A stretch of 59,571 nucleotides of DNA, the filler included, from Catajapyx aquilonaris (lineage: Eukaryota), in NCBI GenBank assembly GCA_000934665.2. It is 2 parts of 2 records of this genome, joined end to end, with 100 filler letters (N's around TTAATTAATTAA, not from the genome) between each part and the next. Parts side by side here need not be neighbours in the genome. Positions count along the whole stretch, not along the records: positions 29,763 to 59,571 come from JYFJ02004757.1; 1 more part is not named here. The stretch is one strand, 5' to 3'. The first letter of the stretch is position 1, and each line of letters begins with the position of its first letter. Shown piece by piece: positions 29,763-59,571 of the stretch. A program made the translations under genes and the position numbers. Under the pieces are notes generated by a model that was not told where the DNA came from, searched no databases, and saw only the letters and a program-made list of their open reading frames with translations.

Positions 29763-30449
29763 GTCTACGGGCGGACGCAGTGCTGTCGGACATAAATGCC
29801 TAGCTTCGGGGCGGGACACTGGGCTAGGGCCTGGGGGATGCGTATGGGAGTGCTGCAGTGGAGTTGGGTCCTTGAGCATTCAGGGCATTGCTTCCCCCTC
29901 CCCCCATTTTCCCTTCCATACTTGTTTTTTGCTTTTAGAAAATCTTAAAATTTGCATAAATTTACCGAAAACTTGCATTAAATGTACATCAAAATTAAAC
30001 TGTTGTGAACTATCACCTTTTCAGATCTTATTTGGCTCAGCTTCATTTTAAAATATAAATGTAATTTCTCTAACGTAAATTCTATTAATCGTTTGATGGA
30101 GTTCCTTTTGTGAGGACAGTAAATGTAAATTCTTGTTCTTGATTAGCCTTTGAATAATTGTGGATGATGAGATACATTGGCGCGGGGCCTTTATGGTCGG
30201 GTCGCCGTAACTCTGACACAGTCTGTGACCAGTACTTCACGGCAACTTGCAGCTCTTTTGGACTGGCGCTGGCGGTGATTTCATCGAAACGCACAGTCGC
30301 ACACCATACAGAAGACTTTTTCTTCATTGTGTTTCCTGGTCAAGTCTTTGATCAAAAACCCATTTTGGTCCTGATGGTTCAACCACTCGATGAGTTCACC
30401 ACATAACCATCAAGCACAGTCCCATTCACCATTCATCCACGACCCAGAT

Positions 30450-31000
30450 CCGTTCCTACTTACAAACTCCTGGAAGGCCCCTGACGTGAAAGCCGTTTCA
30501 TTGTCTGTCGTGAGCCTTTCAGGGAGGCCATGGGTGGCAAAGACCTTCCTGAGGGCCACGACAGCCGCTTCAGTCGATATGGATGGAACTTGGAGCACCT
30601 CCAGCCACTTGGAGTGGGCATCCACCACCACGAATAAATAACGTCCCTGGTGGGCGCCTGCGAAGTCGGCGTGCAACCTGGACCATGGCCGGGTGGGCCA
30701 GGGCCAGGGTAGGACTGGCGCCTTCTGAGGGTTGGGCCGTGTCATCTGGCAGCTGGTGCAAGCCCGGACCATCTCCTCGATGTCCCCATCAATCTTCGGC
30801 CACCACACATAGCTTCGGGCTTGAGCCTTCGTCCTGCTCATTCCTTTATGATGCATTCCTTTATTATGATGCATTCCTTTATGCATGGAGGGTCTTCAGC
30901 ACCCGGTCTCTGGCCTTCTTTGGTATGATGGTCCTCGCTCCCCATAGCACACATCCGTCCACCACTGACAACTCGTGTCGTCTCTGGTAGTACGGCTGGA
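30450..31000 (-). pseudogene. Gypsy-type integrase fragment (HHCC zinc domain plus start of DDE core)
   Basis: ELSVVDGCVLWG, ARSYVWWP, CTSCQ, PWSRLHADFAG, VVVDAHSKW, FATHGLPERLTTDN. Confidence 0.92.
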
Positions 31001-32544
31001 TCTCGGGTTCCACCGGTTCGGACGGCCATATTATTTTCTTTATATTATGGAAGTCAAACAATTGGTGGGAAAAAACACATTAGCCTGATTCCAGTTGTGC
31101 CAACCGCAAATGCTAACTGTGCCAATAAGTCAGCCCATGAAACTGCTAGTTGAATGAGTGCCCTCTAAAGACCCCTTTGGGTCATAATGGGGTATGTAAA
31201 ATGAAATAAAAACCACACTAGTTGGCACTACTAGAAACCAATAATGATATCAAATTACCTATGGTTCCGGTTACGCGTCCGAAAACTCCTTTGCACACAG
31301 AAACCCTTCCATCAGCCGCCTCGCAAACTCCTCATATATTCCATGGTATGGCAGAGTGAGAGTGTTGGTGCAGGTGCTGGCTGTCGGGAAGGGGTTCACG
31401 TCGACTACATCAGCAAATGATACCGACAGTTTTGGGGTAAACCCCAGCACTGGGACTACACTGGCCCCAGGGTGATTCAACAACTGAATACATGCGTCTG
31501 CTTATTGGCAGGTATCTCTGCGCCTGTAACCCGCACCGATGTGAATGATGTGCCATTGGATTCGTAATATTACAGGGAATTCATATTTTGCAATAACGAA
31601 CGGTTTCCGGCAATAGTCAAAGGTCAATCACTTTGACCCCTGACTTTTCACTAGAAGCCATTTTTATTTTCTTGAAATTTAAAACACATCACCACCTGGC
31701 CTAGTCCTAGCATGCCCTAAAATATAAAAGTTGTGTATATCCTTGTTTACAAGAAAAAAAAATTGAAAGGTGTTACGGTACCCAGACAGCCGCGCGCGCT
31801 GCGCTCTTATCGCGGAACATTTTGAGCGCCCCACTTCTGATGTTAGTCATTCTCATATTCGCACACAGTTTGAAAGTCACTAGGAAATGTTTATTTCGTC
31901 ACATAGACTTCTGATATTTACCTGTAGGGTGTTCATAAGTACAGCTAGAAGAAAAATGCTAAGTGACATTCGCGATTCATACCCTCTTCATTTACACACA
32001 TTTTCTTTCACTTTGCTTTAGTATCTGTATCTTTCTTATAATGTGATTTCCTTCCAGACACTAGCACAATCGTCAATGTTTCGGCAACCTTACCGTTCCA
32101 AAATTTCAATCATGTTAGTGATGTAAGTGGTTTTTTTTCTTTTTTTTTTCGTATCCTGCTAATATCACTTTAGTGCAGGTTGTACAATCCTGCTGATGCA
32201 TTGAAGCTGCAGTTGACTGTACATAGAAGAACATAGAGAAAAATTTACGAGTCAAATGACGAGTCTTCTTAGTCACGTGACGATACAAATTCGACTAGCC
32301 TTGGCTAGTCAGCCCACTAATCACTTGACTAGTCGTTCCTAGTCAGCCAACTAGCCTGGAAGAATCACTTGACTAGCCCATCCTCTTCCGATATGTAAGA
32401 CATGGCTGTGAGAAATTTGAGCGCTCTCCGTACCCGGGAAGTGGCTTAATTAATCGTGATAAATAAATAAATGTGCAAACTTTGTCCTTTATTAATAGGG
32501 ATAAAAAGAAAACGCACTCAAATCTTAACATCTAAGGGCTTTGA

Positions 32545-33450
32545 GAAGGTTCGCGAGGGAGCGTCTCTTGGACTTGATGCTGCAGCCCAATCCAAATAGC
32601 TCCTCCAGAGCACCAATAGTGGCACTGCCCTTGACATACTTGATGTCTAACACTGCATGGAGGGCCAGATATCCCGCGACAGCTTCAATTATTCCCTCTG
32701 CAGAAAACTCGGTGACACCTTGTCCTACAACCTGAAATGTGCAGTCGGGGTCCTGTGGCCGGGCCTTGTCAGCTGCAGGCTCTTTGAATCCTTCATGGAG
32801 TCTTTCAAACTCTCTTAAAATCTGGAGAAGATATGGTCAAAAATATTATGCACAATAAAGCAAGAAGGAATGGTCTTCAAGAGCGAGCATTCAAGTATGA
32901 AACAGTATGCTCAAAAGTTCTGAGCAAGCTGTTACTCAGCATTCGTAACTGTTCATTCCCATAAATAAATATTCACTTAATAATTGTGCTTTTTGAATGC
33001 AAACCGACATTTTGGTACAGTTCATCAGCAAAGGTGAACTTACCTCCGAAGCTTGGAACAGAGCTGGATGCTCCCTCCTTAATCAGTCTTTGCCTGTCAG
33101 CTGCAGTGGCTGCCATTCTCAGTCATATCAGGCGATTTCTATTGCCAAAAAATACATTTCTTACTATTAATGTGATCCACTCTCACAGGAATATGTAGTC
33201 TAGACTGTGTCAGTAACTTACATGCTTTAGTCCTTTTTGCATGAACTGTTTATGTTGCGAAATGGAAGTGGCATATTCATCTGCATTCGTCATTTCAGCC
33301 AACTTCAGTTCAATGTGCATCTTTTTCACCCCGCCTATTTGACCCTCAACGGCTTTCCTCTTTACACTCTGTGGGGGTGGAAGGTCGCCCTTTTTGCGCA
33401 GCCTCTTACGGTCGTTCCTAAATTTGGCACTTGGTGGCAGCTTCCAAACT
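32545..33450 (-). pseudogene. Fragments of a CACTA/EnSpm-associated accessory (SAMD3-like) gene
   Basis: EAVAGYLALHAVLDIKY...ALE and AKFRNDRKRL...SISQHKQFMQK resemble this family; splice-like borders present. Confidence 0.5.
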
Positions 33451-34288: not shown

Positions 34289-34620
34289 TCATAATTGCGA
34301 TTTCGCTTGTGATTCTCTTCGAGTTTGTTGTTCATAGTCTTCACATTTGGTCAGTTCCTTGGCTTTTTCTTCAATGGATGAGAAGGTAGATCGCATAGCT
34401 TGAATGTACCCATGCAAGGATTCATAGAGTGCACTAGCTGTGTTCAAGTCTTGATCAGAAGATTGCAAAGAAGAACTGGTCATTTGGAAACGCTGCATTA
34501 CTCGATCCCACAATATGATCATTAATCCCGTTTCCAGCTTCATCATTGTTGAAAGGAGCCCACGAGCTTGCTGACGACACTCTGCCTTCTGATCATTGTT
34601 TTTTGAAATCTCGTGCAACA
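34289..34620 (-). pseudogene. hAT (ZMYM1/Tip100-like) transposase fragment
   Basis: QARGLLSTMMKLETGLMIILWDRVMQRFQMTSSSLQSSDQDL; abuts a hAT-like terminus ending CCGCCACTG near 34697. Confidence 0.8.
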
Positions 34621-36114
34621 CTTCTCCCCCGCGAGGCCCCCCAAAGCGCGGGGCCCTTAGCATTTGCTAGATTTGCTATATGGGTAATCCGCCACTGCAT
34701 CTTGTTCTCCACCAGCGTCTGTTGATCCGTCTAGTGCGTCCTCCTCATCACTCTTATCTCCATCTTCAAAGTCACTCAGATCATAATCATCTAGGACCTC
34801 CAAAATGTTCACAACATCCAACACCACCTCCATGTCGGGCCATCTACAAGTTACCAGTACAGATTAGTCACTGTCCCTGTATTATGTTTAATTCATTTTA
34901 CTTGTGTTGTAATGAGCAACAGGTAACCTCCTCAAAAAAAGTCACTGGGACTAAATATTAAAATGGACTTTAATGCCCAGTGTTGCGCATGTGCAACATG
35001 CTTTTTCCAACTGTAGTTAATGCCACAGTTTTAAATATTTGACAGTGAAATGGATGTAACGATAGAGCAAGTCTTTATCAACGCATACATAGCCATAAGT
35101 AGGCCGATGATGCATAATTACTTAGTGAAATTTTCGGATTCCGTACCTGTGTTTCTAGTCCTGCAGAAGTGCCTCCACAGCAGATCACAACATGCTCCCA
35201 ACTGGCTTTGTGAAGGCTGTTCGAGTTCGGCTTTTTTTCATGTAGATGACGCTGACAGCACGACTGACACACCAATAACTGCCTTACACTAGTGATATCT
35301 ACAGAATTTAGAAGCAATTATCGAGAAGGCGTGTAGCATATATGCTACAGTGGGCATCACAGGGTTACCACAAAAGGCAAGGGGCTCACCAGCAGGGTCG
35401 ACCACGGCCCCCTCTTGGAAACTGTGCATTAGGCGCTTGGACAGTAGGCGGGATCCGCTGCATCACAAGTGCATGATAGGTCCGGCGCAGAATGCCTTTG
35501 TCAAACTCATCCAGACTGGTTTTGGGGCCTGACTTATTGCGCTTCTTCCCTGCAGAACGTGAAAGTGAATAGGAATTACAGACAGCACGAAATGTGGGTG
35601 TGACTGGTAATCCCCAATTTGAGGCAACGTTAATGGTGTGCCATAGGTAGACTTACCATGATTGGGGGGGCTGAGGGCAAGAATGGCGCATGCCACTCAA
35701 CAGGCTAGACTGAGTTATTCCCACAGATTGAATCCATACACCATATTCTACCAGTGTAATGAACTAAATGTGTATGAAGGCATGCGTCATTTGAGTTCTC
35801 TCAACCCCTCTTTTCGGCTCAACTCTTTTAGGCTCAAACTGGGATGTATTTGCGGTGGGTGTTACTTGACTTTTCCCCCAAGCGTATTTTTATTTCTTTT
35901 CATTTATTAACAGAGTTAAAACAGAAATACGGTGGTCAGCATCACTGACAAGCTATTCATACTTTCATTTTATTAAAACTATGAGCCTTTCACAATTGTC
36001 TGCATGCATTTTTGCCATTGAACTCACAGCTACTTAGTGTATTTTTTCTTCTTCATTTGTACACTATACGTGTCACTGAAAATACTTAGTGATGATGGTT
36101 TGGCTGGTACTGCA

Positions 36115-36330
36115 ATACCTGGAGTCGGCATGTCTGGGGCCTCTTTGGAAATGCGTATGATTGTGCCCTCCTTCATGCCGGTAGCAGCAGCTGTCCGTTC
36201 CACTGCCTTGGCAACGTCGCAAACCGGCCCTCCGACTCTCTTCTCCTCCTTGAAGTAATCGTAGACTCGGCGGATGACGTTCCGTGTCTGGCGCCTGAGT
36301 ACCTCGCGCTTGTGACTCGGTCCCCCGTCC
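36115..36330 (-). pseudogene. Tc1/IS630-like transposase N-terminal HTH fragment
   Basis: QTRNVIRRVYDYFKEEK...AVERTAAATGMKEGTIIRISKE. Confidence 0.7.
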
Positions 36331-36654
36331 ATCGCACCGGCAAGAGGAGACGGTTTGGACAAGGACATGCCCACAATTTCCGTTACAGTCGGCCCAGATC
36401 ATGCAAACTTACTTCTTGGGGGCTGCCATTTGTATTGTTTTATCATTCCCGCAGCCAGCGTTGGATATAAGGATCACGAGAGAGGGTGTTTCATTCAAAA
36501 CCCCTTCGATTTCCCGGACTGTATCCAGCGCACTCCGGGTTGCGCAGTCGTCTGCGTTCTTATTTGCATTCGACTTTAGGGCCACTCACAATCCGCTCAA
36601 AATGTTCCACCACTATGGGTAGATTGTTTCCTAGCGCCTTCACAGCACGGTTCT

Positions 36655-37651: not shown

Positions 37652-38050
37652 TTACATAGCAACGCGACGAACTTTCTTTTCTGCAAAGGAACGGATGATC
37701 TCAGTGTAGTCCACAGACTTCAAAATTTTGGACTCGATGTACAGCGTGCTTAGCGAATTCAACCTGTTTTCTTCTGTAGTCGAGCGCAAGTAGTTCTTAA
37801 CTCTTTTTAGAGCCGAAAACGACCGTTCTGCCGAGCAGTTTGACGCCGCGCCGGTGTGCACAGCAGTATCCGGAGGGCTATTCCCACGTTAGGATAAATG
37901 TCCAAAAAGCCTTTCTCCTGGATGAACCTATAGAGTTGCTGTGTTGAAAAGTCTGTTCCCACCGTAGCCTCAGTCAACGACAAAATATGAGCTCTCAGGT
38001 GAAGGCACTCGTTCTCCAAAGTTACACCCAAATCCTCAGGATAGAAAGCT
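37652..38050 (-). pseudogene. hAT C-terminal dimerization domain with native stop (one frameshift)
   Basis: YPNVGIALRILLC / SNCSAERSFSALKRVKNYLRSTTEENRLNSL...SFAEKKVR*. Confidence 0.92.
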
Positions 38051-38459: not shown

Positions 38460-38950
38460 ACGATTTTCATATATTGACTGAATACATTTCAAAAACAAGA
38501 TATCCCATATCTTAACAGTTTGTGAATCCTTTAGCAATGAGATGTGCTTGCCCCTCCAGTGCCTGCTGGCGTAGTAGCTGCTCCTCCTGCAGGCGTGCCT
38601 CCTTTGCCTCCTTGAGTTTCAACTCCTTCTCCAGCCGTGCTTCTCTTGCCTCCTCCAGCTTCAACTTCCTCTCCTTGTACTGACGATGCCACTGTGCGTC
38701 ATCTTTTTCCTGCTGCCTCTTCTCCTCCCGGTACTCTTCCAACCACTCCATCAGTGGTTCCTCCCGGGCCCGCTTCCTGCGCGGGTAGGATGGAGCTGCG
38801 GGGAATTGAAATAATGTCTTATTAGTTATTCAATCAATGTGATGGCCTTTCGCACAGTACTGCAGCTTACTGGCGGAATGGTTGGCCGCGGGAGATGGGG
38901 CAGAAGATGTGGACCCCCCCGGGCGAGGCTGCAGATGAGGGTGTCGGTGA
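38460..38950 (-). pseudogene. Harbinger Myb/SANT gene 3' part; duplicate of ~48525-49000
   Basis: Near-identical to the 48.5-49.0 kb copy; charged coiled coil MEWLEEYREEKRQQEK... Confidence 0.75.
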
Positions 38951-39514
38951 AGTGCACATGACCAGGAAGCAGCAACTGGCGTCGTATGCACAGTGTCCTG
39001 AGGAGTAAAGACAGCTGAATACTGGAATGACACTAATGATGCTAAATTTTTCCCCTTTCTACAAATGAGCCAATATTAAATGGGACAACATACTAAGTGT
39101 TTACATGATTTCCCCAAATTCATCAATGACAATATTGTTCTAATAAATGCCGCGTTACCTATAACAGCAATGTGTGGATTTGGGGGTGCAACTATGGAGG
39201 CTTCCACTTCATCCGAATTTGCTGTGCTCTGCAATGTTGTGAAAGTAATTAATTTTCATTTCAGTATTTTCAAAGGGCTTATTTCCCTCCTACTAACTGA
39301 CACTGTGGTGGCGAACAAGGAAAAAGAAATCCTCATTGAAATTTGCACATAGGGCACTGCTCTTGTACTGTACGGTATTTTTCCCATTATTGATACATAC
39401 CATTTGTACGTAAGAGCCATCAATTCACGTACTCTGCTATTGCTTCTCTCTTTCCTGGCATACTCCTCCTTCAGCCATTTCCTATGTTCTTCCTGCGTCT
39501 CCTCAGTTTCCCCC

Positions 39515-39700
39515 ATGGTCGTGAACGACGTCTTTTTTTCCACAAATTCTCACTGTAACACAATCCTTCTTCCCCGGCATACAACGACTGACATCATCGC
39601 TTTCAAAGAATTCTCTTACGCTTTTCACTGTGGTGTCATCCAGTGTTTTTCCTTGGCACTGAGGAATGTCGGCTCGCTCCCTGTGCCGCAGCATCCATGA
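39515..39700 (-). pseudogene. Sola2-like DNA transposase N-terminal fragment
   Basis: VREFFESDDVSRCMPGKKDCVTV motif. Confidence 0.65.
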
Positions 39701-39994
39701 TGACCTGAACTTTCATTCTTCTTACATGATGCAGATCATGCAACAATTGAACGTACAGGACAAAGTGGGGGGACGTCTCACGTGACTCAGGTATGCGTCC
39801 TGATTGGTCACTCGCAGTACGAAATCGTGCAGACGAGTTCGCACACGTGTGTTTTTTCAACCCTGGTTAGACAAGTTCGCGACACGATTTCACGTACGAA
39901 AATATCAAATTTTCACGCACTACTATACTCGCACATGCGTTAAAAGACAAAATCGCAACGATAATTCGACTACTCGCAGATATGAGAATAGACC

Positions 39995-40363
39995 GTGACT
40001 TTTGTGGTCAAGTGCTCCGGATCCTTCTCGATAATCGGCTACAAACGGGTGTACAGTAGCCTGGGAATGCTCCCACCTGTAGCCCTGTGCCTCGTCTTGA
40101 ATGACGAAACTGTAATTTTCCGCAAAGTCTCCTTGAATAATTACTTCCGAGGCAGGTTTGGTTTCTTTAAGGGATCTCAGGTACTGCGATTTTGCCGTAA
40201 AGTGGTGGCGTGTCCATTCCACCATCTTGTCAGCCAGGTGCTCCAAAAATTCCCCGCTGCTCTCTGTGACTGTCATCAGTGTGGTTTTGTCAGTGGACAC
40301 CCATTGTTTAAATGTAACCTCTTCAACGGATAAAATGTCATCCACCAGTTCACTATCCTCCAT
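39995..40363 (-). pseudogene. Sola2-like transposase catalytic fragment
   Basis: FKQWVSTD, HHFTAKSQ, GDFAENYSFVIQDEAQGYRW..QATVHP. Confidence 0.75.
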
Positions 40364-40569
40364 GTCCAGGGCATTCTTTGCATTTTCGCATCATGCAGGC
40401 TTCCACTTCAAAGTCACAAACCGTTTTTGCCATAACATTCCACGAGAGATATGGTGTCAATTGCAGGGTGATGTGCAAACATTGACTATGGCACTCATTG
40501 GGTGCTGCGTTTGTGGCTCAACTTATGCTTTCAGAACTCGTGCTATGAGAGGTCCTTGCATTTGCACCT

Positions 40570-41625
40570 CTCTGTGAAATAGTATCGAACCCCATCATCT
40601 TTTTGAAGTGCTGATTAATATACTTGGGTTGGAAAATTCCGTCTGGAGTTGGGGTATGGTCAGGCCTTATATGACATCCTTTCTCTTGATGTCGAAGGTC
40701 TTCTCCATCACATCCGTGACATTGGCATCTCCCATTCCCATTTGAACATAATGTTTTCAAATCCTCCTTCATTTCCTTCTTGCAGTTGAGTGTGTTCTCA
40801 GAGGACAATGTCCGTGGGTGCCACTGCAGGTAGCCGTACACATCCCGCTTATTTTTCTTGGCCACGGCCTGACATTGAAATGTTCATTTAAGTATTCAAT
40901 TTATAAATCGTTTTACCTAATAGGGACAAAGAAATTTCAGTGGAATCCTATCTCACCTGTGTCTTGTTCAGTTGACTGTGGACTAGCTGAGAAGCTTCCT
41001 AGCCAAGTTCTCGATTCTGTGTTGCAGCTGCATAAGGATCAGATGGCTACCATCACCCAGGGTAGCCCCTTGGAAGCTGTCCCTGAATTTATGTGGGTAG
41101 TGTTCCACAATTTGCTGTGCAGCCTCTCGCGAAACTTTTCTGCTTGGCCTATCTCGTCTGTCCCCATACAGAGTGTCAGCAATCACTCTTAACAACCTGG
41201 AACCTTTCCTTCCTTGATAGCTTTACACCAGATTTTAGCTTGCCCATGGAAGCAGTGGACACTACATCCCACGAAATCTGACAAGCTCTTCCTGCTGACT
41301 GGATCAGATTGGGCGCATGGGTCATTTGTGTTTTTTTTGACATCACGTCTGTAATCACAAGCATAATATTACCATTTGTACTACTAATCATGCAATTGAA
41401 AATATATGTCTAAAAATTACTTTGATTATTTTCTTTCCTGACGTGATTTACTTTCCGGGTCTGAATGGGTTTCAAAAACCTAATCAAATCTTTCTCTTCC
41501 AGGAGCTTAATCGAGTCCTCATCCTCAGCTCCAAGCTCCTCGATCTTGGCAATTAGATTGGTACTCTCTTCTGCACTGATGTTTGAAAATACTTCCTGGA
41601 GTACTTTTCTCACTGCTTCCATATT
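40570..41625 (-). pseudogene. CACTA/EnSpm-associated SAM-like accessory gene fragments
   Basis: ELGAEDEDSIKLLEEKDLIRFLKPIQTRK; QQIVEHYPHKFRD..LGDG..LQHRIENLAR; DVYGYLQWHP. Confidence 0.65.
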
Positions 41626-41804
41626 TCTGCTGATGACAGGTGTCTTCCTTGGTTTGGCTGCTATGGCTGGAAGGTCAAAGTCTTAAATTTTTTTATGGTA
41701 AAGCTCGTTGTTGTTGATTATGATTATGTGGATGATATCTTACTATTGCTCTTTGTCGAGGCTTTAACATTGTCACGACACTTACATGTCATCGGGCATT
41801 AACA

Positions 41805-43790: not shown

Positions 43791-43794
43791 GAAG

Positions 43795-48056: not shown

Positions 48057-48524
48057 GTTTCTGATGCAATAAATACTATGAGTAAAAGGTGAATGGCAAG
48101 TGACACCTGCACAGCATTCATCCAACACACATGAGTGCGAGAGATTGTTCCAAAAGCCTTCATAATTACGTGTAATGAAACAAGATTCACAATCTGCCAA
48201 TGATGACTACTTGATTAATGATTCCAGAATTATTCACACCATTTTCGGCTTTGTTATAATTGAAGCCCTAGAGAAGAACACCCTAATTCCAGTTGGAGCG
48301 ATTTCGAGAAAAACACGAAAAACTGTTTAACCACCATTCTAAGAGATGTATTCCTATGAATTTTGGTAGGTATATTCATTTTCATTCTTTGAAGTCACCT
48401 GCGAAAAGTGATCCATGCCACTGAAATAGGGACGGTGGGGAAAAATCACAAAGTCATTGTAGTTAGGGTGTTCTTGAACTCAGCCTAGTCACAGATCTCA
48501 AAAAGGGAACCAAATATGTTGATT

Positions 48525-49410
48525 TTCATCTATTAACTGAATACATTTCAAAAACAAGATATCCCATATCTTAGTGAATCCTTTAGCAATGAGACGTGCT
48601 TGCACCTCCAGTGCCTGCTGGCGTAGTCGCTGCTCCTCCTGCAGGCGTGCCTCCTTTGCCTCCTTGAGTTTCAACTCCTTCTCCAGCCGTGCTTCTCTTG
48701 CCTCCTCCAGCTTCAACTTCCTCTCCTTGTACTGACGATGCCACTGTGCGTCATCTTTTTCCTGCTGCCTCTTCTCCTCCCGGTACTCTTCCAACCACTC
48801 CATCAGTGGTTCCTCCCGGGCCCGCTTCCTGCTCGGGTAGGATGGAGTGTGGGGAATTGAAATAATGTCTTATTAGTTATTCAATCAATGTGATGGCCTT
48901 TCGCACAGTACTGCAGCTTACTGGCGGAATGGTTGGCCGCGGGAGATGGGGCAGCAGATGTGGACCCCCCGGGCGAGGCTGCAGATGAGGGTGTCGGTGA
49001 GGGTGCAGATGACCCCACTGACATATCCATGCCACCTTCATCTTCCATCCCCTCCCCCTCCCCCGATGGAACTTCCTCAATCGTCTGTAACACAATGATA
49101 TGTTTAGAGGTTTGGTCTGCAAACATGGCGTGCGAACCAATAACCTGGCATTATGCAGCTAAGCATTGAGCACTACTTTACATCAGTCATCCAACTTACA
49201 GCAGTGTCAGGGAGACCCGTCTCTTCCACCAAAGGATACCCCACAGCACTGGTGTTCCCTCCAATGATCATCACCACCCTCTCCTCCATAGGCGAGAGGG
49301 TGGGGAGATCATCAGGAGGTTCTCCAGCCCCGGTGGCATTCCTTGATGCGTTGATCACTGCCACCTTCCTCCTCACCCTCCCTTTCAGATCTGTCCATAC
49401 ATAATAACCT
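48525..49410 (-). pseudogene. PIF/Harbinger Myb/SANT accessory gene fragment with two retained introns
   Basis: WTDLKGRVRRKV...NATGAG...LSPMEERV; GT-AG intron at 49199-49085; second donor GTAAG at 48921. Confidence 0.8.
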
Positions 49411-49784
49411 GATAATATGGGTACCTAACGACATGTCAATATTTGGTTAACGATACCGGTCACCAAATTCACTTTTGGTTTGGTTTCCGAGGTCGCCTTT
49501 GGTTTCCGTCACCGTGGTCGGTGTTGCATTGGGGATTTTGTTACTGTCATTGTTGCATTTCAGTCAGGATTTCGGTATCAGAAGGGATGTGTACAATGGG
49601 TTGCCTACATTTCCAAGCACATCTCTTCCATTCATCTTTGAGTAGTGCGGGTGCAAGGGCGGGAATTGAGTATAACGAGGACGGCCCAGAGCCCCAGAGG
49701 AGGCCAAGCATTGCCACGAGCCCGGACAGGACACGGCGACACGACAAGGGTGAGGGACGTGAGGAGGGGCGGGGAGAGTGTGGA

Positions 49785-50073
49785 TACTGGAGGCCAGTGG
49801 GCTGCCTATCTTCTTTGTTTTCAGCTTGCATCTCATCCATGCTGCGATGAAGTCACCCGCAGTCAGCTGCGCGCCCTGGAGACACTTTGTGCAGATTTTT
49901 GATGGCAACAAGCTGGCCGCGATGTCTGACAAGTAATTCCACTCCGCCTCGGCCAAGAGAATTTTCTGACCACGCTTCTCTAGCTGAGCCTCCTTGACGA
50001 CGTTGGGGACGACGTCTTGCACGGCCAACAAACTCTCCACCATATCCATGCTGGAATGCCAGCGCGTCTCCAT
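49785..50073 (-). pseudogene. hAT transposase fragment
   Basis: ETRWHSSMDMVESLL...EWNYLSDIAASLLP...TKCLQ. Confidence 0.85.
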
Positions 50074-50079
50074 TTCGCA

Positions 50080-50235
50080 AAGGGAAGCATTTCTGCCAAT
50101 ACTTCATCCTCATATACTCCAGCTAGCTTGCACAAGGGTCCCAAAGAGCCTTTAGGAATGCCACCTGCAGATATCTCCTTGAACTTCTCCGGGTTCAGGT
50201 AACTTATGGACTGGAAGAGATGGACCCCCAAAGCG
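50080..50235 (-). pseudogene. Fragment of a different hAT-like transposase
   Basis: ISYLNPEKFKEI...LCKLAG....VLAEMLPFA. Confidence 0.5.
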
Positions 50236-50539
50236 CGACCTCAACTCCATGGTGCACCGGTCATAGATGGGAATCAGAACCTCGGTCTTCATGAGCCATT
50301 CAGCCTCATGAGAATTTTTATCAGCTGAAGTTCATCAGTTGAGTATTCATAAAAGGTATTGAGTAATATGTCAATAATCCAGCAGTGGTGCAGTATGCAG
50401 CATTATTGAAGTCATAAAGTGGACATGTGGCAAAGGGGTTTCTGGGAACCTTATGTTTGGCTCTGTAGGCTAGCATATCCTTCGGTGTTACAATTTGGGA
50501 GTTGGTAGGACTGCAGACTTGCTCTGGCGGTCACTGTCA

Positions 50540-50630
50540 GGAGAACGGTAATAAACCAAGAGGGGTGAACGGTTGCTTGGGTATGGTCCCAGCGGTACCC
50601 TTGCACCTCATCTTGCACTACAAATTGAGT
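50540..50630 (-). pseudogene. Second Sola2-like fragment
   Basis: FVVQDEVQGYRWDHTQATVHP, paralogous to ~40040-40120. Confidence 0.7.
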
Positions 50631-50960
50631 AATGAAAAACATATTTATGAGTGAAAAATGGAGCTAAATACAATCTAGGAAAAATGGCAGTGCAAATTAC
50701 CATCACGTCTTCTGCTTCCCAATCATGGGGGAAGTCCCGCACCTCAATTGCATTATGCACAATACATTGATGAATTGGACTAGGAGTTCTTCGCTCCTGA
50801 ACTGAAATGGAAACAACAGTTACAAATAACTGCCACCACACTTTCCCTAGGCACTGATGCAAAGGATCAGCTGACAGAATGGACATAGTGTAACAGTGGT
50901 GGAAATTAATGGATTTCCACAAGTTTCGCCACCTGGCAGAGCTTTTCCTTTATAGTCCAG

Positions 50961-51362
50961 TCAATAGGTGTTCACATAGTTGTCAGTCCTCATAAGGCAC
51001 AAGCCTCCTCCCTTGTCACTCTGCTTGATAATCACTTGGGTGGGTAATTTGTCACTCGCCCACGTCACGGCCTTTTTGGTGATTCTGTCCATTTCTGGGG
51101 GGAGCCTATCACATGTCACTTTTTTGTGGAGCTCATCTCTAAGCGCCTTGATCGCAGCCTCTTCTCTGTTACACCCGGTGGGAAACTTTGTCGCGTATCC
51201 CTTTTTTGGCCATTGCATTTTTAAAATTTTTTTTTTTTTTGAGGGTCTAGCTGCACCTGTGGGGGGTTCACTGACAATGTCTTTGATCCAATAGTGCGTC
51301 AGGTATTCCACCGCTTTATCCACTTCCTGTACCGTAGCTTGGTGTGCTGTATTTCGGTGCAT
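50961..51362 (-). pseudogene. Penelope-like retroelement fragment upstream of the RT core
   Basis: VIIKQSDKGGGLCLMRTDNY (ADKG motif). Confidence 0.7.
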
Positions 51363-51496
51363 AGAAATGGAGCACTATACACGATGAGCCTAATTTTTGT
51401 CGTTTGGGTTGTGGCGCTACTCAGGGTAACCTTGAACAGGTCCTTTCGTGTCAAATATTTAAATGCACATTGCTTGTCAAGACTGCCGGCACCCTT

Positions 51497-51985
51497 TTAG
51501 TGCTTATTAGATACCCAGTCTTGGCATAGACCCAGTTGCATTTGATGCCTCTTTGCCAGTGTCAAACAAACATTTCTTATATTTCTGAAGGGGGCCATAA
51601 CATTCTTAAAATACCCATACTTATTAGACTCAAAGCGCATAGTCCAACATTGACACAATGGCCCAAAACGCCAAATCAATTCCTGGTAGTGGGTCAAGTA
51701 ATGAAACTTTGGTGAACGAATCACACGCATGGACGTGGCTATACTACTACAAAACAAATTTAAATGATATATTTCATATTTGCAATGGACTCGTATCAAT
51801 ATCAACCACTTCCTAAAACAATATAATGAAGCTGCAGTACTACTTTGAGTGAAGTGTGTTTTCATAATGAGAGGTACAAAACGGAGGAGACACCACATTG
51901 GACTGAATGATTGTTTTACTTTTACAACTGCACTATTGTATTCTGCTCCAGACGGCTTGTTGGCAGCATCAGTCGGGTCATACAT
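51497..51985 (-). pseudogene. CACTA/EnSpm-like transposase fragment
   Basis: PKFHYLTHY..LI.RFGPL...WTMRFES...YFK.....RN...TLAKRHQ. Confidence 0.85.
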
Positions 51986-52232
51986 TGAATTTAGTGGTGC
52001 TTAAGGCCTTAGTACGTTACTTTCATGATGAATTTACGTTACAAATTTGAAATGTTACACGTGAACTTGACAATAATCTATCTGAACAGTTTACCAGCCT
52101 GAAATGTGCCCACCAGTTTCCATTGGGGAACCACGTGATTTTATTTTATCGAAGCCGGCCGCTGCTCCAACAGGCGAAGGGGCTGCAGGTTCCAGTGTAA
52201 GCCACCTTCAGTTTGTGTGCTTGATGAAAGAG

Positions 52233-52461
52233 TGTGAAGGTGAAACGACGTTGGCTCGTCGTCGGTACTGGCTACTCAAATAGATACACCGTAGGTTCTG
52301 TTAAAGCACACCAGGTTTATTGAACTCCGTCCCAGAGGACTGGAATACAACTGTTGGAATCCGTGTAAAGGGCAGGAGCAGAAGGCTCCTTCTTGGGGGC
52401 CCACCCCCCAGGGGGGAGAAGAACTGGGTCAGCCCAAACCCCTGGTGAGTGGGACGTCACA
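52233..52461 (-). mobile_element. Gypsy-like LTR preceded by a polypurine tract
   Basis: Minus strand: G-run+ATA|TGTGACG...AATAAA...TTCACA; TGTGA/TCACA inverted termini. Confidence 0.7.
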
Positions 52462-52899
52462 TATCCCCCCCCCCCATTTTAAAAAACAAGTAGCATATGG
52501 TTTGCATATATGTATAGAAAAAAAAGTAACAATTCACTTCGACATTCAACCCTTGTGGCGGGGGTTAGGTGGTTGGGGGGGGGGGGGAGGAGAACGATTT
52601 CGTTTGTCCAACTGGTCCAAGTGACGGTAACCTGTCGTGTCGGTCCCGAAGGCACAGCTGGTCAGCCAACATCACTCCTGATGTCCACGTTGCTGTGGAT
52701 TAAGTGAGATCCGTACAATTTGCTCCTCGAGTACGTCCAGCAGGGCAAGTTGTATGACCTTTTTGGCCTTAAAGTGTAGATCTGCATACTTTATTGCTTT
52801 ATTGCTGGGACCGTAAATGTCATCGCTCGCAGCTCCGGACCTGCTGGAGGACTCCACCCAGCCCTTCTCCCGCATGTACACAGTCCGCAGAGACGTCCA

Positions 52900-53345
52900 C
52901 TTCAGCCGTACTTCATTGGCGGAAGTGCCTGGCCTGGCCGGATAAACTCCATCAAGGGAGACGAGAGGTACGTGAGGAAACAGTTGATACCCGCCTTGGG
53001 GCTGGCGTATCCCGTGACGATGGGCCTGATTGCAAAGACCCTGGGGGAAGGGCGGACCTTATGGGTTTTGGGAAGGCCATACAATTTGGTTCAGCCCAAG
53101 TTGAGCATATCATAAAGGATTTGCTATACCTTCCCGTCGATATGGCCCCCCGCAAACAGCTTGAAAGCCACCTTGGAGACCCGTTCCCGGATCCGCGAAG
53201 TCATTTCCCCCCAAACTCTGCCCCCCTCTTGGTCCTCATAACCCACAAACTGGTAGCTCGGGCCGGACACATGTCGCATCATGGCGGCCATGTAATCAGA
53301 GGTATGAAGCAGAGTGAGGCCACCTCCCTTATCAGAGGCCTTGAC
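52900..53345 (-). pseudogene. Penelope-like RT fragment
   Basis: KASDKGG; LYGLPKTHK...IRPIVTG..SP. Confidence 0.85.
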
Positions 53346-53439
53346 TTTGTTTAATTTCCAAGCTGTTATTATTGAATATTTTGCTGGATATTAACATTAA
53401 TAAAGATATAAAAATCACAATTGACCGTGACGAGATCCG

Positions 53440-54150
53440 GAATCCTGGCTTGGAGCCACTTGGTGGCAACCCACGTTCTCTCATCCACCAAGGGCCTGCT
53501 TGGTCCCCGCAGGTTCACCCGGTGAAGGTCCTCACGAACCGCAGCCAGAATGGTCTGTTCCAGCTGGCGGCCGGGAAAAGGGAGTGGGCCCGTCGGGCGG
53601 GAGTCAGTCTTGGCCTACCCAGGCTCCTTCTGAGGCGCAGCCGGGGCAGGAGATCTCCCAGAGGCCAGAGTAAGTTTGACCATGGATATCCTCCACCGCG
53701 CGGTCTACATCCGCCTCCCATGCACAACCGACCGGGATATGCTTTGGGCCGAGGCTAAGATACCACAAGACCTCCTCAGGAATGTCCAGACAGGTCAAGT
53801 TTTCCGCAGCCTCATACCTCTGCGTCCATAAAGTCCTCCTACAACGCAAGGGCGGAACCGCTGCTCCTGAGGTGACCAAACGGACCAGGTCGGGCAGCGA
53901 CGGCAGCCGAAGAAGCTTGTGACTGGGAGCGGCAAGACCCGCCAGGAGGATGGGTAAGTCCTCGACGAGAGGCATACCCCCTAGCAGGCCCGCCCACACT
54001 AGCAATATCTGCCAGTGCCTGGGCGCGCGCCTGCAAATTATTGCAAGTGTCATAAGTAGGACGAACTGTCAAGAAATGCACAAGGAACACTTACCGCTGC
54101 ACGAACTCCAAGGTTGTTGTAGCTCGTGCTGGGTACTCATAGCCAAAAAC
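53440..54150 (-). pseudogene. Penelope-like N-terminal fragment
   Basis: NLTCLDIPEEVLWYLSLGPKHIP (NLS...LSLGPKF-type motif). Confidence 0.65.
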
Positions 54151-54399
54151 ATAATATGAACACATCAGCACAAGAATGGCATCTGTGTAGTGGAGCAGTC
54201 CTGTCGTCACTTTTCGGTCCATGACCAGGAAGCATCAACTGCCATCATATGCACAGTGTCCTGAGGAGTAAAGACAGCTGAATACTGGAATGACACTAAT
54301 GATACTAAATTTCTCCCCTTTCTACAAATGAGCCAATATTAAATGGGACAACATACTAAGTGTTTACATGATTTTCCCAAATTCATCAATGACAATCCT

Positions 54400-55201
54400 C
54401 GCTTCGTCTCCAGCACTGCCTCCTTCCTCTCCTCGTCCCACCGGTACCACCTCCCGTCCGCCATCAGCCTGTCAACCTTCACCGTGCAGAGGGTGCCAGA
54501 TGCCCGCCACTCCTTCAATGGCCAACCCGGAACAGCTCCCTCCGCACAGCCCTGGTTGCCACACTAAAGTCCTCGTCCACGTAGACCTGGCTGCCCCTCA
54601 GCTTCCCATTCTCCCGCAGCATCGCCTCCCTCTCCTTCCCACTGTCGAACCTGACGACTATTTTTCTCTCCTTCCCCGGTTGCTTAGGCCCAACCCTCTG
54701 CGCCCTGGAGATGGCTCTGAGCTTCAGGCCCATCTTCGACTGGGCCATCTCCTTCAGCTTCTCCTCCGTGCGGGCCCAATCTTCCCCCTCCTCCTCCGGG
54801 ATCCCCGTCACCACCAAGTTGTTCCTCCTGCTGCGGTCCTCCAACTCATTCACTTTCTTGGCGGTGGCCTCCCTCTCCCTACGCATCTCCTCCGCCTCCT
54901 TCCTCAGCTGCCTCGCCTCCTTTTCCAGCTCGGTCGTCTTCCCAGTCCACTTCTGCTCCATCTCGTTCACCTTCTCCTTCACCTCTCGCACCTTTCTCGC
55001 CAGCCGCTTTTCTATCTTCCCCAGCTCTCCCGTCACATCCCGCAGCATCCTCATCACCTTTGCCATGTTGGCATGTTGGCTTCCCCCTTCTTTCCTGGGT
55101 AAAACTCGGCTATCCGGGGCTGCCCCCACCCCCGGACTTCCTCCAGCTACCTGGTGCCCTTGCCCCTCCTCCTGCCCTCCCTCAGCGCTCTTCCTTCCCA
55201 T
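54400..55201 (-). pseudogene. LINE ORF1-like protein (coiled coil plus RRM; L1/CR1/L2 type)
   Basis: LEDRSRRNNLVVTGIPE, AQRVG, RKIVVRF, KLRGSQVYVDEDFS. Confidence 0.85.
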
Positions 55202-55489
55202 CCTTCTTCCCCTTCAACCTTCTCTCCCTCCGGAGCTGACGCACCACTCAACTCGCTTTTCTGGCCCTCTAGCGGCCACCCCGAAGGTGTTGACACTTTT
55301 GGATGATTTTTACGCTGCTTCTTCACCTTGTGTGAAGTGGCACCACCGCACCAGCAGGCCCCCCAGTCCCCGCAGCTGAATCATCAGGGGAACTCTTCCC
55401 TGGCTGGATGGATGATGGATCTAGAGCGTGATCTTAGAGCGTGGTAGAACTTGAACTACATAGCCGCAACCTTCTGCTTTGTTTAATAA

Positions 55490-55840
55490 GGGGTGGAGTT
55501 TCTGGCCAGCCCTTTTCGGCAAACATCACACGTGTAATTTTTTTTTTCATTAGTGTGTGTTTTCATATGTTGTGCCAGGTGACTGCTGCTTGGCTGAACC
55601 ATTCCTTACATACAGCGGTACATTGAAACCACTTCTCGCCGTTGTGAGTTATTTTCATGTGCGCATTCACATCCGACGAGTGCCGGAACTTCTTGTCGCA
55701 CGTGGGGCAATCGAATGGCTTCTCCCCATGTGCCTTTTGAGGGTGGAGTTTCTGGCCAACCTTTTTTGGTAAACGTCACACGTGTAATTTTTTTCATTCG
55801 TCTGTGTTTTCATGTGTTGTGCCAGGTGACTGCTGCTTAT
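55490..55840 (-). pseudogene. Two degenerate C2H2 zinc-finger fragments
   Basis: HLAQHMKTHTNEKKNYTCDVC and HLAQHMKTQTNEKNYTCDVYQKRLARNSTLKRHM. Confidence 0.75.
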
Positions 55841-56833
55841 GAGCTGCCTTTCGAGGAGGAGTCTAGGAGCTCTTTCATGGACTTGCACGCCCTGGCTTAT
55901 GGATTGACCAATGCGATGTGTCCGCTGGCCTTCGATTCATCGAAGTTTTACTGTATGTTGAAACTAACCTTCTGCAACTCCTTTTCTCCTTTTTCCAGAG
56001 GGGGGCAGAGTAGCGGTGTCTTTTTTTGCACTTTCCTGAATAAAAACAATACATATTTCGGTAGAACGCAATTAGGAAAACACTGTATTTACATTTATAG
56101 TAGCTCCTTCAAAGTGCAAAAATGAAGCTTAAAAGAGTGAAACATATTGTGATATAGCTCGAAAATACTAATTTAGGCTCGAAAATAGAGAGAGGAAAGT
56201 GGCCACCATGACACGAAAATGAGTTGTTTTCCGCTCCAAAAAAAAAGAGCGAAATGTGGCCACTCTTTTGAAAGAGCTAAAACCGCAAGGCAAAAATTAA
56301 TGTTCAAAAGAGCGAAATTTCGACTCGATTCGAGCGAAAAGCGGGCTTTTCAATTTAGATACAGCATCATCACGCATATGTGCCAAAAGTATTTGGAATT
56401 CTTCCTGTGCAGGAGAGAACACATCAGCAGTCTACTCTGAGCTCTAATATGCCGCATATTGTTTTCACTTCAGTAAATATCATGTTTTTGGGGGTAACAT
56501 GCAGACTAGAGAGAGGAAGAACCGCACGATAGCCAGACATCCACGGACAGGTGTATAATCCCCCTGGCGCCTTAGAGATTAGCTGATAAGCCCCTAATTA
56601 GCGACAGGTGGATAATCCTTTGACATGCCGCCCAATTAGTATGTCGCGTGTCAGACACGTATGAACCTACTCGTAGACGTGGTGCACCGGCGGTATGTCG
56701 TGTGCCGTGCACTTGTTATGTCGCACACCTAACCTATACGTTCCCCCGCCAGACAGGTGTCGTACGCGTGTCACACCTGTTTCGCTGCTGCACCGCCCGG
56801 CCGCGTTGCCGAGTTGCAGGTGTCGTACGCGTG

Positions 56834-59446
56834 TCATGTCGATCGAGCTCCGCCATCTAGAGACCATGCAGAGACCTCCCTCTGCATGGTTTGCTGATAC
56901 CGAACATCCATGGTTGAAGTCGGATCCTCTTTCAACGCCACCCTCCTATTAGAGAAGCATGTTGGACATCCATGCCAGTAACAACCGTAAAATTCGTATA
57001 CATGTACGACGTCACCATCCTGATAAAATCCGTCTACCTTGTATCTCCCCATCCTTCCCTCGGTCCCATTCCCCTGGAATCTTAATTCACTTTTCTCACC
57101 GGGTTGGCTTGTATTGGTTGTCAACGAGTGCCTTTTAGATTGAATGAGAAGATGGTCCTGCCAGTGTAACCATTTCAAAGCTATACCCGACTGTTTATCT
57201 CGTCTATACCCACCTGCCGGAATTACCCCGATAGTGTCTTTTGTCATCATGTTGCGCCTGTATGTCAGGTGACACGCTTGCGGAAGAGTAATAGCCTCGA
57301 CCAAGGGATCGATTCCGTTCTCTGTCAGAAATATTTCCCTGAATCGAAGACAAGCAGTTTTCAAAATGGTTACATCTGAAATGCAATAGGCAATCAATTG
57401 ATCCTTCAGTTTAAAACCGGAATCGCCCAGTTTTTCCTTTTCAGTAGCATGCCATGACATAAACCTCTCCCTCTCTTCAGCACCCATACCATCAGGGTCA
57501 TAATAAGACACTTCGGGCAGACTGCCTTCATACTCCTGATTATCAGACCTGTTTGTTAGATATGGAAAGTAACCCTTTTTCATCTCAGTAAAGCCAAAAA
57601 CTTTAGGGAGTTCCGCTAGTGGCATGGGGAGGAAATTGGCACTGTCCTTGTAAGTAATGTTGCCATCTGTCATGTAAGTCACTTTGAGTCCATTAGCTAT
57701 AATTGATGGTTCCCGGCCATGCACTTCAACTAGTTGCTTTAAAATAAACTGCCCGTCAAACCCTTTGAGATTATGTGCAATCACCACGACTTCCTTAACA
57801 TGACGCATCCCTCTCACGTACTCAACAAAGGATTGTAGTGCTGAAGAGCCGTAGAATATATTCTCCCGCACTCCGCACATGTGACACCAGCGCATATCTA
57901 TCGCCTCTATACAGTTAGAGCAAACCTGTTGTGAAACTATTAAGTTTACCTCGTGAACCCATGTGTTTTCGAGGTCAGGGTGATTTCGGTCCTGCGTGGT
58001 CTCGATATCAAAAAATATATATACGAAATCAGCCGCTTTTTTCTCTACTTTTCGCTTCTTAGACTGAGGCGCCTCTACTCTCTGCAGATGCTTCGGCAAG
58101 TATTTCTCTAGGTAGTCGGGCGTAGTGTATGGCTGTATGTAACATTGATGACCACGTATTACCATCTTTTTACATGCCTTGCAGTACCTCTCACCACACA
58201 CATGTTTAGCTTTGGAACCTCTCTTTCGCAAGTTTACTAGTGAAGAACATTTTTTGCAGTAGAATAGCGACTCACACACAGATGGAGATGTAGCGCTAGC
58301 CCTAATGTGACGATCAAAGCACTCTTTCCCGTGAAAATCCCTCGCACAAGTTTTACAGTAGATTTTGACAGAGGTACTACCAGAACAACTAGGAGAATTT
58401 TGACAGGCCATGCAAAAACCTTCACAAAAATGCTTTTTCTCTGACGCCTTCATGCATGATTCACAAAAGTACTTGCACAGGAGCAAAGATGCACCGGAGA
58501 AACATGGGCAGTAATGGTGTTCATCTCTAGACCAGTATAGATATAGGTTAATTCTCGGATGCTCCACACTCGACTCTGGGCCCATATAAACAAACTCATC
58601 GGTTTCGTCACAGAATACACATATCCTGTAACCCTGGAGGTGATTTTGATACAACCGTACCTCTTCGAGACTACACCCACCCGCAGGAATCTCCACATGT
58701 GCTTCCAAAGTTAATTTCTCCGCCGCCCTCGTCTGCTCACCATTGCTGCTACGAAACTTTTTGAACTCTCCCAGGGACATAAGATTTGCCTTGCGCTGTG
58801 CATTGGCTATGTCCAGGGCAAGTGCCCGGGGTAAGCAGAGATTATCATCGTTTTCAATGTAGATAAAAGACTTTTGGACCCGACACCTCTCCTCAAACTC
58901 CATATTCCTAAATACTAGGTACTTATCACGTCCAGACCCAGACATTGCTGAAATATGTATGACATTAATGTGCAAAACCCCGCCACTTGGAGCAATTACA
59001 TCAGAACCTCTCTGTGACTGTGCTGCAGATTCAACCTGCAGGAGTATCGCATTGGTGTCAAGCTGAGAGGCCCTTCTCGGATGAATGAATACAGTGTCGT
59101 CCCCTGATCCCCCTCCGCGTGTCAACTCTAACTGTATCATGTCCCTATCGCCAATATTACCCCGTGACCTTATATAAACAAGTATGTCATCAAGCACAGA
59201 CCTCAACCATTCAAGAAAGGGGGTGTTCTCGGGGGCGGGGTCAATCCTGAGTGATATTTCCATTGCACTGGTGTTGAGCCTCCTTAAATAGATGGTCTTT
59301 TCACCTACTAACCTGAACACTCTACTACTATCAAGTGATCGGGAGGGTGACAACCTGGAAGAAACTTGAGAATCAGTGATGGGGGTGCTGTCTGGAGTGG
59401 GCGGGATAGGAATCAGTTTCCTCTTTTTTGATGGGTGTGTTTTCAA
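56834..59446 (-). CDS. Polinton/Maverick protein-primed family B DNA polymerase, C-terminally truncated (OTU-like, Cys-rich, 3'-5' exonuclease and VSR-like domains)
   Basis: NDDNLCLPRAL..HY; CxxC arrays; Exo I FFDIET, Exo II AHNLKGFDG, KKGYFPY, Exo III YCISDV; YKVDGF..YEFYGCYWHGC. No DxxSLYP, KxxxNSxYG or YxDTDS palm motifs. Confidence 0.92.
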   Translation of the reverse strand: MKTHPSKKRKLIPIPPTPDSTPITDSQVSSRLSPSRSLDSSRVFRLVGEKTIYLRRLNTSAMEISLRIDPAPENTPFLEWLRSVLDDILVYIRSRGNIGDRDMIQLELTRGGGSGDDTVFIHPRRASQLDTNAILLQVESAAQSQRGSDVIAPSGGVLHINVIHISAMSGSGRDKYLVFRNMEFEERCRVQKSFIYIENDDNLCLPRALALDIANAQRKANLMSLGEFKKFRSSNGEQTRAAEKLTLEAHVEIPAGGCSLEEVRLYQNHLQGYRICVFCDETDEFVYMGPESSVEHPRINLYLYWSRDEHHYCPCFSGASLLLCKYFCESCMKASEKKHFCEGFCMACQNSPSCSGSTSVKIYCKTCARDFHGKECFDRHIRASATSPSVCESLFYCKKCSSLVNLRKRGSKAKHVCGERYCKACKKMVIRGHQCYIQPYTTPDYLEKYLPKHLQRVEAPQSKKRKVEKKAADFVYIFFDIETTQDRNHPDLENTWVHEVNLIVSQQVCSNCIEAIDMRWCHMCGVRENIFYGSSALQSFVEYVRGMRHVKEVVVIAHNLKGFDGQFILKQLVEVHGREPSIIANGLKVTYMTDGNITYKDSANFLPMPLAELPKVFGFTEMKKGYFPYLTNRSDNQEYEGSLPEVSYYDPDGMGAEERERFMSWHATEKEKLGDSGFKLKDQLIAYCISDVTILKTACLRFREIFLTENGIDPLVEAITLPQACHLTYRRNMMTKDTIGVIPAGGYRRDKQSGIALKWLHWQDHLLIQSKRHSLTTNTSQPGEKSELRFQGNGTEGRMGRYKVDGFYQDGDVVHVYEFYGCYWHGCPTCFSNRRVALKEDPTSTMDVRYQQTMQREVSAWSLDGGARST

Positions 59447-59571
59447 CAGGGGACTTGACGGGTTGAATCGGAGAATCAGGGCGGTTTTCCACAGTCGGCC
59501 TGTATTTGCGCTTTTTCAAAGGTAAAGAACTATTAGTAGTGATGGAGGTGGTGGGGGCGGGAGTCGCAGGT

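Follow-up and report, generated by a model that had tools for sequence, protein, structure and literature searches.

A one-strand mosaic of transposon remains in Catajapyx aquilonaris, possibly a graveyard shaped by strand-keeping duplication

We describe a contig of the Catajapyx aquilonaris genome (assembly GCA_000934665.2, record JYFJ02004757.1) on which the remains of six families of transposable elements (TEs), together with two host-like domains, all lie on the minus strand. The contig occupies positions 29763-59571 of the 59,571-nucleotide stretch of DNA that was analysed—hereafter the window—and had been singled out in an original prediction as a candidate uni-strand PIWI-interacting RNA (piRNA) cluster or genomic immune archive, built by a CRISPR-like capture of fragments. 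The strand uniformity of this region is real. We give roughly even chances to its being an ordinary TE graveyard, in which insertions were followed by duplications and deletions that keep the strand, with chance or a retention bias supplying the remaining coherence; a putative flamenco-type piRNA source locus is a tentative alternative. The two are not exclusive, being compatible as to origin and differing on the locus being read into small RNAs. As a candidate for a small-RNA test the region is a good one; it does not amount to a new kind of system.

Unistrand piRNA clusters are reported across the Drosophila genus (PMC10643416), and a trap model has been put forward for such loci (PMC6573471). 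In flamenco, the share of antisense TEs is given as 79% in D. melanogaster, 50% in D. simulans and 67% in the D. simulans duplicate (PMC10495008). Core piRNA clusters of mosquitoes are described as enriched in antisense nrEVEs (endogenous viral elements of non-retroviral origin; 10.1101/2022.08.22.504762), and piRNA defence is reported as ancestral in arthropods (10.1101/185694).

Coding remains of the contig lie on the minus strand

Pfam models were run on all 502 stop-to-stop open reading frames (ORFs) of at least 50 amino acids (aa) in the window and, for the right contig, on six read-through frames of each strand. Matches above the gathering score fell at five loci in 29763-59571, all on the minus strand; on the plus strand of the right contig, neither the ORFs nor the six read-through frames gave a match above that score, and the read-through frames gave no family at E ≤ 0.05. 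The sole plus-strand match at E ≤ 0.01, to Nuc_sug_transp at 47725-48009, reaches 15.9 bits where the cut-off is 27 and lies within a miniature inverted-repeat transposable element (MITE). Relaxing the search to E ≤ 5 for ORFs of at least 100 aa, 26 of 29 on the minus strand and all 28 on the plus strand (the ORFs of the integrase, repeat A′ and the DNA polymerase described below being omitted) added only a weak Transposase_22 match; the few sub-cut-off matches of plus-strand ORFs (FANCL_d1, Herpes_UL31 and others) are taken as chance. Pieces recovered by tblastn with two families of database relatives are likewise all on the minus strand. The three homologue searches began from minus-strand ORFs and are no test of the plus strand, so the even-handed comparison is that of Pfam and composition.

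Two database-free tests agree with this picture. In the right contig, 25 of 29 1-kb bins are pyrimidine-rich on the plus strand, compared with 13 of 29 in the left. In all six 5-kb bins the composition of minus-strand ORFs is the more protein-like (p = 1.8e-4 by Mann-Whitney, as against p = 0.11 for the left contig). Both tests are supportive rather than exact, given bins that are not independent of one another and a reference composition drawn from relatives of one minus-strand ORF. The number of long ORFs (at least 100 aa) does not separate the strands, with 29 on the minus and 28 on the plus.

About 15 pieces have tool support: six TE families, each at E < 1e-3, plus a HECT domain and zinc fingers. 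All are on the minus strand, bearing out the earlier claim that every readable coding fragment lies there, and nothing like an equal strand distribution was seen. As in flamenco-type loci, the TE remains of 29763-59571 lie mainly in one orientation. The count of about 30 fragments first proposed falls to these roughly 15; the multi-family, same-strand mosaic is retained.

The region is one whole contig

Positions 29663-29762 read N44 + TTAATTAATTAA + N44, an artificial-looking spacer that parts two contigs, the central 12 letters of which, TTAATTAATTAA, place a stop codon in each of the six frames. Such linkers serve to string contigs together. The region is the whole second contig (29,809 nt, GC 0.467), with both of its ends open; the left contig measures 29,662 nt (GC 0.409). 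With lengths so nearly equal, the two may have been adjacent entries of a file sorted by length. Because the region begins at the first base after the spacer, the contrast once drawn with normally inserted elements in the 'left half' compares unlinked DNA. By self-blastn, no repeat is common to the two contigs, 28 of 28 rows lying within one side.

Direct duplication and deletion within the contig

The right contig contains eight repeat families, all of them direct, with no inverted pair; self-blastn agrees. They include tandem duplications of 193 bp × 2 and 250 bp × 2 (the latter at 55491-55838), and copies lying 4.9, 10.05 and 15.3 kb apart. Tandem- and direct-repeat searches revealed no repeat-spacer periodicity of the CRISPR-like kind.

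A run search for the locus listed four DNA runs of one sample and no RNA run. Read evidence was taken from Logan contigs of these four runs over 39572-59571, using 31-mers; this sample is probably the source of the assembly, so that read support is not independent. The unitigs of each run cover 30 of 30 bins of that interval, in pieces of up to 3.6 kb with 0-3 differences.

Repeat A, found by the repeat searches, is present twice. Copy 1 (672 bp, 38462-39133) carries a 42-bp tandem motif. Copy 2 is split into a left part at 48521-49014, 96% identical to 38462-38963, and a right part at 54220-54396, 96% identical to 38957-39133, by a minus-strand stretch of about 5.2 kb (49015-54219) that holds reverse transcriptase (RT) N-terminal, X-domain and transposase-like pieces. 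This stretch is flanked by a 6-7-bp ATGACC duplication, which is either a target-site duplication (TSD) or microhomology, and the reads contain a unitig joint 49000->54220. The word depth of repeat A is about twice the base depth, and therefore only these two copies exist in the sample. The two long terminal repeat (LTR) candidates of the original prediction correspond to these copies (38462-39133, and 48521-49014 plus 54220-54396). They prove to be a two-copy local duplication: the ends are not TG..CA, and what lies between the copies are transposase-like, hAT and long interspersed nuclear element (LINE) pieces, where neither gag nor RT nor protease was matched, so repeat A was rejected as an LTR pair.

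The pieces of one transposase-like family have changed their order while keeping their strand. The minus-strand ORF at 39926-40390 has 16 relatives (P0014-P0029) of up to 888 aa, a rotifer protein among them, the best at 1e-39 with 61% identity. Seven that were scanned gave no Pfam family, and an alignment of ten relatives displays conserved D/E-containing motifs in common. On these motifs the family appears DDE/D-like and transposase-like; the 'Sola2-like' of the original prediction would be a candidate name for it. Five of its pieces were placed by tblastn, all on the minus strand: aa 228-277 at 39518-39706, aa 288-375 at 40368-40508 (out of protein order), aa 393-509 at 39932-40363, aa 508-675 at 47211-47543 and aa 468-488 at 50559-50624. 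The pieces at 47211-47543 and 39932-40363 overlap by about 33 aa of protein (P0017, P0021) and therefore derive from different copies. The same overlap rules out one candidate arrangement, in which 39983-47543 would be an exact circular permutation of a single element cut at aa 508/509.

Upstream of the transposase core, in each of two blocks, sits a domain that we call X. Its copies, at 42257-42535 and 51524-51814 on the minus strand, are paralogous (33% over 99 aa by tblastn within the window, 1.5e-4); a lead from the Atlas is DUF4218, present in 11% of one cluster and CACTA-associated (51500-52000). The end of the aa 508-675 piece, 47174-47273, has a direct copy (89%) at 52044-52142, found by repeat search and self-blastn. 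The order B-end, X, core thus occurs twice, as 47174-47273 / 42257-42535 / 40046-40108 and as 52044-52142 / 51524-51814 / 50562-50624. Two copies of one element joined head to tail would be expected to show just this order; in the first block, hAT-like and LINE pieces amounting to about 4.7 kb lie within the junction.

The LINE is broken up on a smaller scale. An ORF at 43739-44299 on the minus strand has 14 relatives, from ticks, a pseudoscorpion and a barnacle among others, 12 of which carry RVT_1. One of the family's relatives, P0031, combines N-terminal zf-C2H2 with RVT_1 and a weak C-terminal zf-RVT match, a layout that appears R2/NeSL-like; a putative restriction-like endonuclease motif was also recognized, and the Utopia/NeSL-like label of the original prediction is a candidate clade assignment. 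By tblastn, three minus-strand pieces align to the C-terminal (aa 1053-1159, 44462-43940), RT (aa 567-613, 43933-43793) and N-terminal (aa 7-95, 43643-43371) parts of RVT_1 proteins. They follow one another over 43371-44462 on one strand in reversed protein order, and the 193 bp × 2 tandem duplication (44055-44442, copies 96-97% identical) lies inside the C-terminal piece.

Copy number and a recent insertion

Most of 39572-59571 is at base depth; the bins that are multi-copy have word depths of 734, 308, 168 and 138 compared with about 30. Unbranched unitigs of 0.9-3.6 kb at base depth cover 39815-43407, 45030-47519, 51418-52384, 52408-53375, 53383-54277 and 56831-57997. Given such long unbranched unitigs, most pieces are without a near-identical copy elsewhere in the sample, and the remains are old or low in copy number.

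The most abundant segment is a hAT-like MITE of 439 bp (47618-48056) with 12-bp terminal inverted repeats (TIRs), an 8-bp TSD (GTTTCTGA) and many copies; its word depth of 734 is about 20-fold the base of about 30. In three of the four runs of the same sample, unitigs join 47609->48057 through eight shared letters, revealing the empty site. The insertion is recent and either polymorphic or heterozygous. The lack of termini and TSDs that had been noted for most pieces is accordingly not general, this element having both.

Further fragments on the contig

At the left end of the contig, the minus-strand segment 30413-30895 encodes a Ty3/retroviral-type integrase fragment comprising the HHCC zinc domain and part of the core (Pfam Integrase_H2C2, 9e-13; rve, 4e-12). 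A search of PDB sequences with three minus-strand frames returned this integrase as the sole match (prototype foamy virus (PFV) integrase, 9e-10; Ty3, 2e-8). Close by, at 31274-31501 on the minus strand, lies the C-terminal end of a HECT ubiquitin ligase, running up to the stop codon (Pfam HECT, 6e-8, profile positions 240-294 of 306); no second HECT piece was detected in the contig, and a word-indexed protein search with the HECT ORF gave no relatives. Both pieces are enclosed by a possible 3,001-bp unit (30213-33213) with a 12-bp TIR and a 5-bp TSD (TAACT), which may be a transposon carrying captured pieces. It is a lead: such a TIR/TSD pair arose in 7 of 300 shuffles, and it was chosen post hoc from among several TSD lengths.

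The hAT superfamily is represented by a C-terminal dimerisation domain at 37655-37888 on the minus strand (Pfam Dimer_Tnp_hAT, 2e-4), which at 21.5 bits just passes the cut-off of 21.4, and by the MITE at 47618-48056 with its 8-bp TSD and short TIRs. Beyond these two, five hAT-like pieces, and a second RT N-terminal piece near 51.0 kb, were recognized by eye. By eye, from its motif, a minus-strand ORF at 34292-34666 looks hAT-related, with no tool support. The minus-strand ORF at 36033-36398 has a helix-turn-helix-like N-terminal region for which the Atlas offers a Tc1/pogo/IS630-type DNA-binding lead. Its top Atlas hits (0.95) are unnamed arthropod clusters, helix-turn-helix families follow at 0.78-0.88, and no Pfam family matches. 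More generally, the Pfam models of CACTA, Tc1, pogo and Harbinger gave no match at E ≤ 0.05; CACTA-like and Tc1/pogo assignments have weak Atlas leads, and Transib has no lead.

The N-terminal region of an RT protein lies at 52932-53345 on the minus strand. Searched with the read-through of 50541-53453 among 1.84 billion representatives, it has two relatives (1.7e-5 and 2.8e-4), both of which carry RVT_1 directly after the aligned part; no GIY-YIG was seen. Its motifs make the piece a candidate Penelope-like one. At 54518-55213, again on the minus strand, a coiled-coil ORF matches coiled-coil families and, below the cut-off, the L1-type ORF1 RNA-binding model (Pfam Transposase_22, E = 0.035), the remainder of the assignment having been made by eye. 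C2H2 zinc fingers follow at 55566-55936 on the minus strand (Pfam zf-C2H2, 6e-7; zf-H2C2_2, 7e-10), within the direct duplication 55491-55838.

The right end of the contig is occupied by a piece of a protein-primed type B DNA polymerase (pPolB) of Polinton/Maverick type, comprising its N-terminal and exonuclease part, on the minus strand at 56837-59515 (Pfam DNA_pol_B_2, 3e-18, profile positions 8-195 of 468). The frame is open over 893 codons and lacks the polymerase half of the profile; its word depth of about 30-46 is that of single-copy sequence, and the sample shows no second copy. Pfam detected no other Polinton gene family, and no inverted repeats were found. The piece is a fragment of a Polinton-type element, not a whole one.

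The left contig has a character of its own. Its sole clear host-gene signal is an RMI1 N-terminal OB-fold exon at 3898-4131 on the minus strand (Pfam, 4.6e-16). It is rich in palindromic repeats of foldback type (505-621, 2146-2678, 5557-5980, 7598-8130 and 9029-9223), of which 5557-5980 is a MITE with a 15-bp TIR and an 8-bp TSD; the right contig has no inverted repeat of at least 40 nt. Runs of (ATA)n and (TAT)n, perfect and about 24-29 units long, face each other at 15185-15270 and 15416-15486 and form a long AT-only inverted repeat. Rfam and tRNA scans gave no match.

Origin of the mosaic

With confidence evenly balanced, we favour the graveyard as the best account. The 29.8-kb contig would consist of decayed, mostly single-copy transposon remains founded by ordinary insertions, which local events of direct duplication and deletion, tandem as well as segmental, would then have copied and shuffled without inverting them. 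Tandem duplication followed by deletion shuffles the order of pieces and never flips their strand, which explains end-less pieces on the same strand, and the many abutting fragments would be descendants of few insertions. Coherence left over between families would come from chance among a few founding events, to which orientation-dependent retention may add, as it could if a long plus-strand transcription unit encloses the contig. A process dedicated to fragment capture would not be needed. We infer both this succession of events and the lack of a dedicated function. Heterochromatic TE graveyards have nested insertions and local tandem or segmental duplications, normally in mixed orientations. 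The region resembles them in its truncated, end-less pieces, its direct repeats and tandem duplications, its TSD or microhomology junction and its mostly unique, decayed sequence.

Several observations weigh against this reading. Duplication explains coherence within families, not that between six TE families, HECT and zinc fingers, and such full cross-family coherence is unusual for a graveyard. The compositional asymmetry extends over the whole contig (25 of 29 bins), beyond what a few chance events would be expected to yield. If the eight kinds of fragment were independent, their lying on one strand would have a two-sided binomial p of 0.0078, although duplication and possible joint insertion make the true number of events smaller than eight. 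The pPolB piece, its frame open for 893 codons, is truncated and probably young, not old. A host gene that would account for retention is not apparent, as no plus-strand exon was found, in scans that small exons would escape.

A putative flamenco-type uni-strand piRNA source locus is possible, if doubtful. On the trap model, plus-strand transcription would yield antisense piRNAs, selection would keep the orientation of the remains and duplication would enlarge the locus. Such a locus would account for the features that trouble the graveyard, namely coherence across six unrelated TE families and two host-like domains and an asymmetry over the whole contig. It would also suit remains that are dense, nested and truncated, and the multi-copy segments (734, 308, 168 and 138 compared with about 30) mean that related potential targets exist. 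Dense truncated nested arrays with a strong one-strand bias are likewise found in flamenco, where local duplication of the cluster is reported (PMC10495008); an enrichment in antisense nrEVEs is described for mosquito core clusters (10.1101/2022.08.22.504762), and a piRNA defence that is ancestral in arthropods (10.1101/185694) would fit, arthropods being the group to which named relatives and Atlas taxa weakly point. Like the mosquito nrEVE clusters, the region joins virus-like and TE pieces in one orientation at one locus, although its sole virus-like piece is the Polinton-type pPolB and no RNA-virus endogenous element was found.

The piRNA reading fits less well elsewhere. Most of the 20 kb examined is unique at the 31-mer level, leaving most pieces without close targets, and the shared orientation extends to HECT, the zinc fingers and pieces of about 20-50 aa, which duplication explains and antisense selection does not. 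The known flamenco loci are themselves not fully coherent: in the figures reported for them (PMC10495008), they are dominated by Ty3/mdg4 elements and 50-79% antisense, as against many classes with about 15 of about 15 pieces on one strand here. The contig also extends over 29.8 kb only, whereas what defines flamenco is its promoter, its precursor of hundreds of kilobases and its piRNAs.

We consider it improbable that the contig is a misassembly, a chimera of collapsed repeats in which both the coherence and the shuffled order are artefacts. The assembly is fragmented into contigs of about 30 kb and has single Ns at 37114 and 45029, and the unitigs—short, and from reads that are probably the assembly source—neither span the stretch nor test its long-range order. 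Nevertheless, the unitigs of four runs cover all 30 bins of 39572-59571 with 0-3 differences, the sequence is mostly unique and of a kind that assembles reliably, and a chimera would not favour one strand.

Directional acquisition, in which pieces of TE transcripts, and some of host transcripts, would be joined in sense orientation into an archive without normal transposition, for example by end-to-end template jumping of an R2-like RT, is very unlikely. R2 enzymes are capable of template jumping, and a resident LINE of apparent R2/NeSL type is at hand; many of the pieces are internal, coding-only and closely spaced, and the LINE C-terminal piece meets an RT piece of the same family within about 6 nt and in frame. 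The opposite strand of such an archive would be read into antisense small RNAs, the acquisition step needing no transposon to land in the cluster, a proposal of equally slight probability. Yet no regular repeats separate the pieces, the piece borders inspected show no poly(A) tract, 30 kb far exceeds a single cDNA and a normal TSD-flanked insertion is present; tandem duplication with deletion, seen directly here, gives the same patterns. The CRISPR-like fragment capture that had been proposed finds no support for kindred reasons: there is no repeat-spacer pattern, a TIR/TSD insertion with its empty site is on view, and duplication and deletion suffice. The region shares with CRISPR arrays the idea of an archive of invader pieces, a likeness that is conceptual at most, and differs from them in having neither repeat-spacer periodicity nor a uniform piece length; no search was aimed at acquisition genes.

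Least probable of all is the insertion, as a unit, of one large mobile element (a Polinton/Maverick or a fragment-carrying transposon), for which the presence of pPolB and integrase at opposite ends, each on the minus strand, and the joint enclosure of integrase and HECT in the possible 3-kb TIR/TSD unit might speak, were it not that the integrase is of Ty3/retroviral type with an HHCC domain, that pPolB lacks the polymerase half of its profile, that no capsid, ATPase or protease family appears at Pfam E ≤ 0.05, that no terminal inverted repeats were found and that the word depth is single-copy. Capture of gene fragments by DNA transposons is familiar from Pack-MULEs, Helitrons and CACTA transduplication, and 30213-33213, with unrelated internal pieces between its ends, would resemble these; the unit is backed by a 12-bp TIR and a 5-bp TSD only, and the rest of the contig, unlike such transposons, is without borders of this kind.

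Significance

If plus-strand small RNAs are produced from it, the region would represent a compact unistrand cluster in a species other than the usual models, probably an arthropod. It would archive DNA transposons, LINEs and a Polinton piece together and would show a cluster growing by local duplication. If they are not, the graveyard carries a warning, that strand-keeping duplication and deletion can make TE remains resemble a designed one-strand archive, and with it a second, that one window can hold two unlinked contigs.

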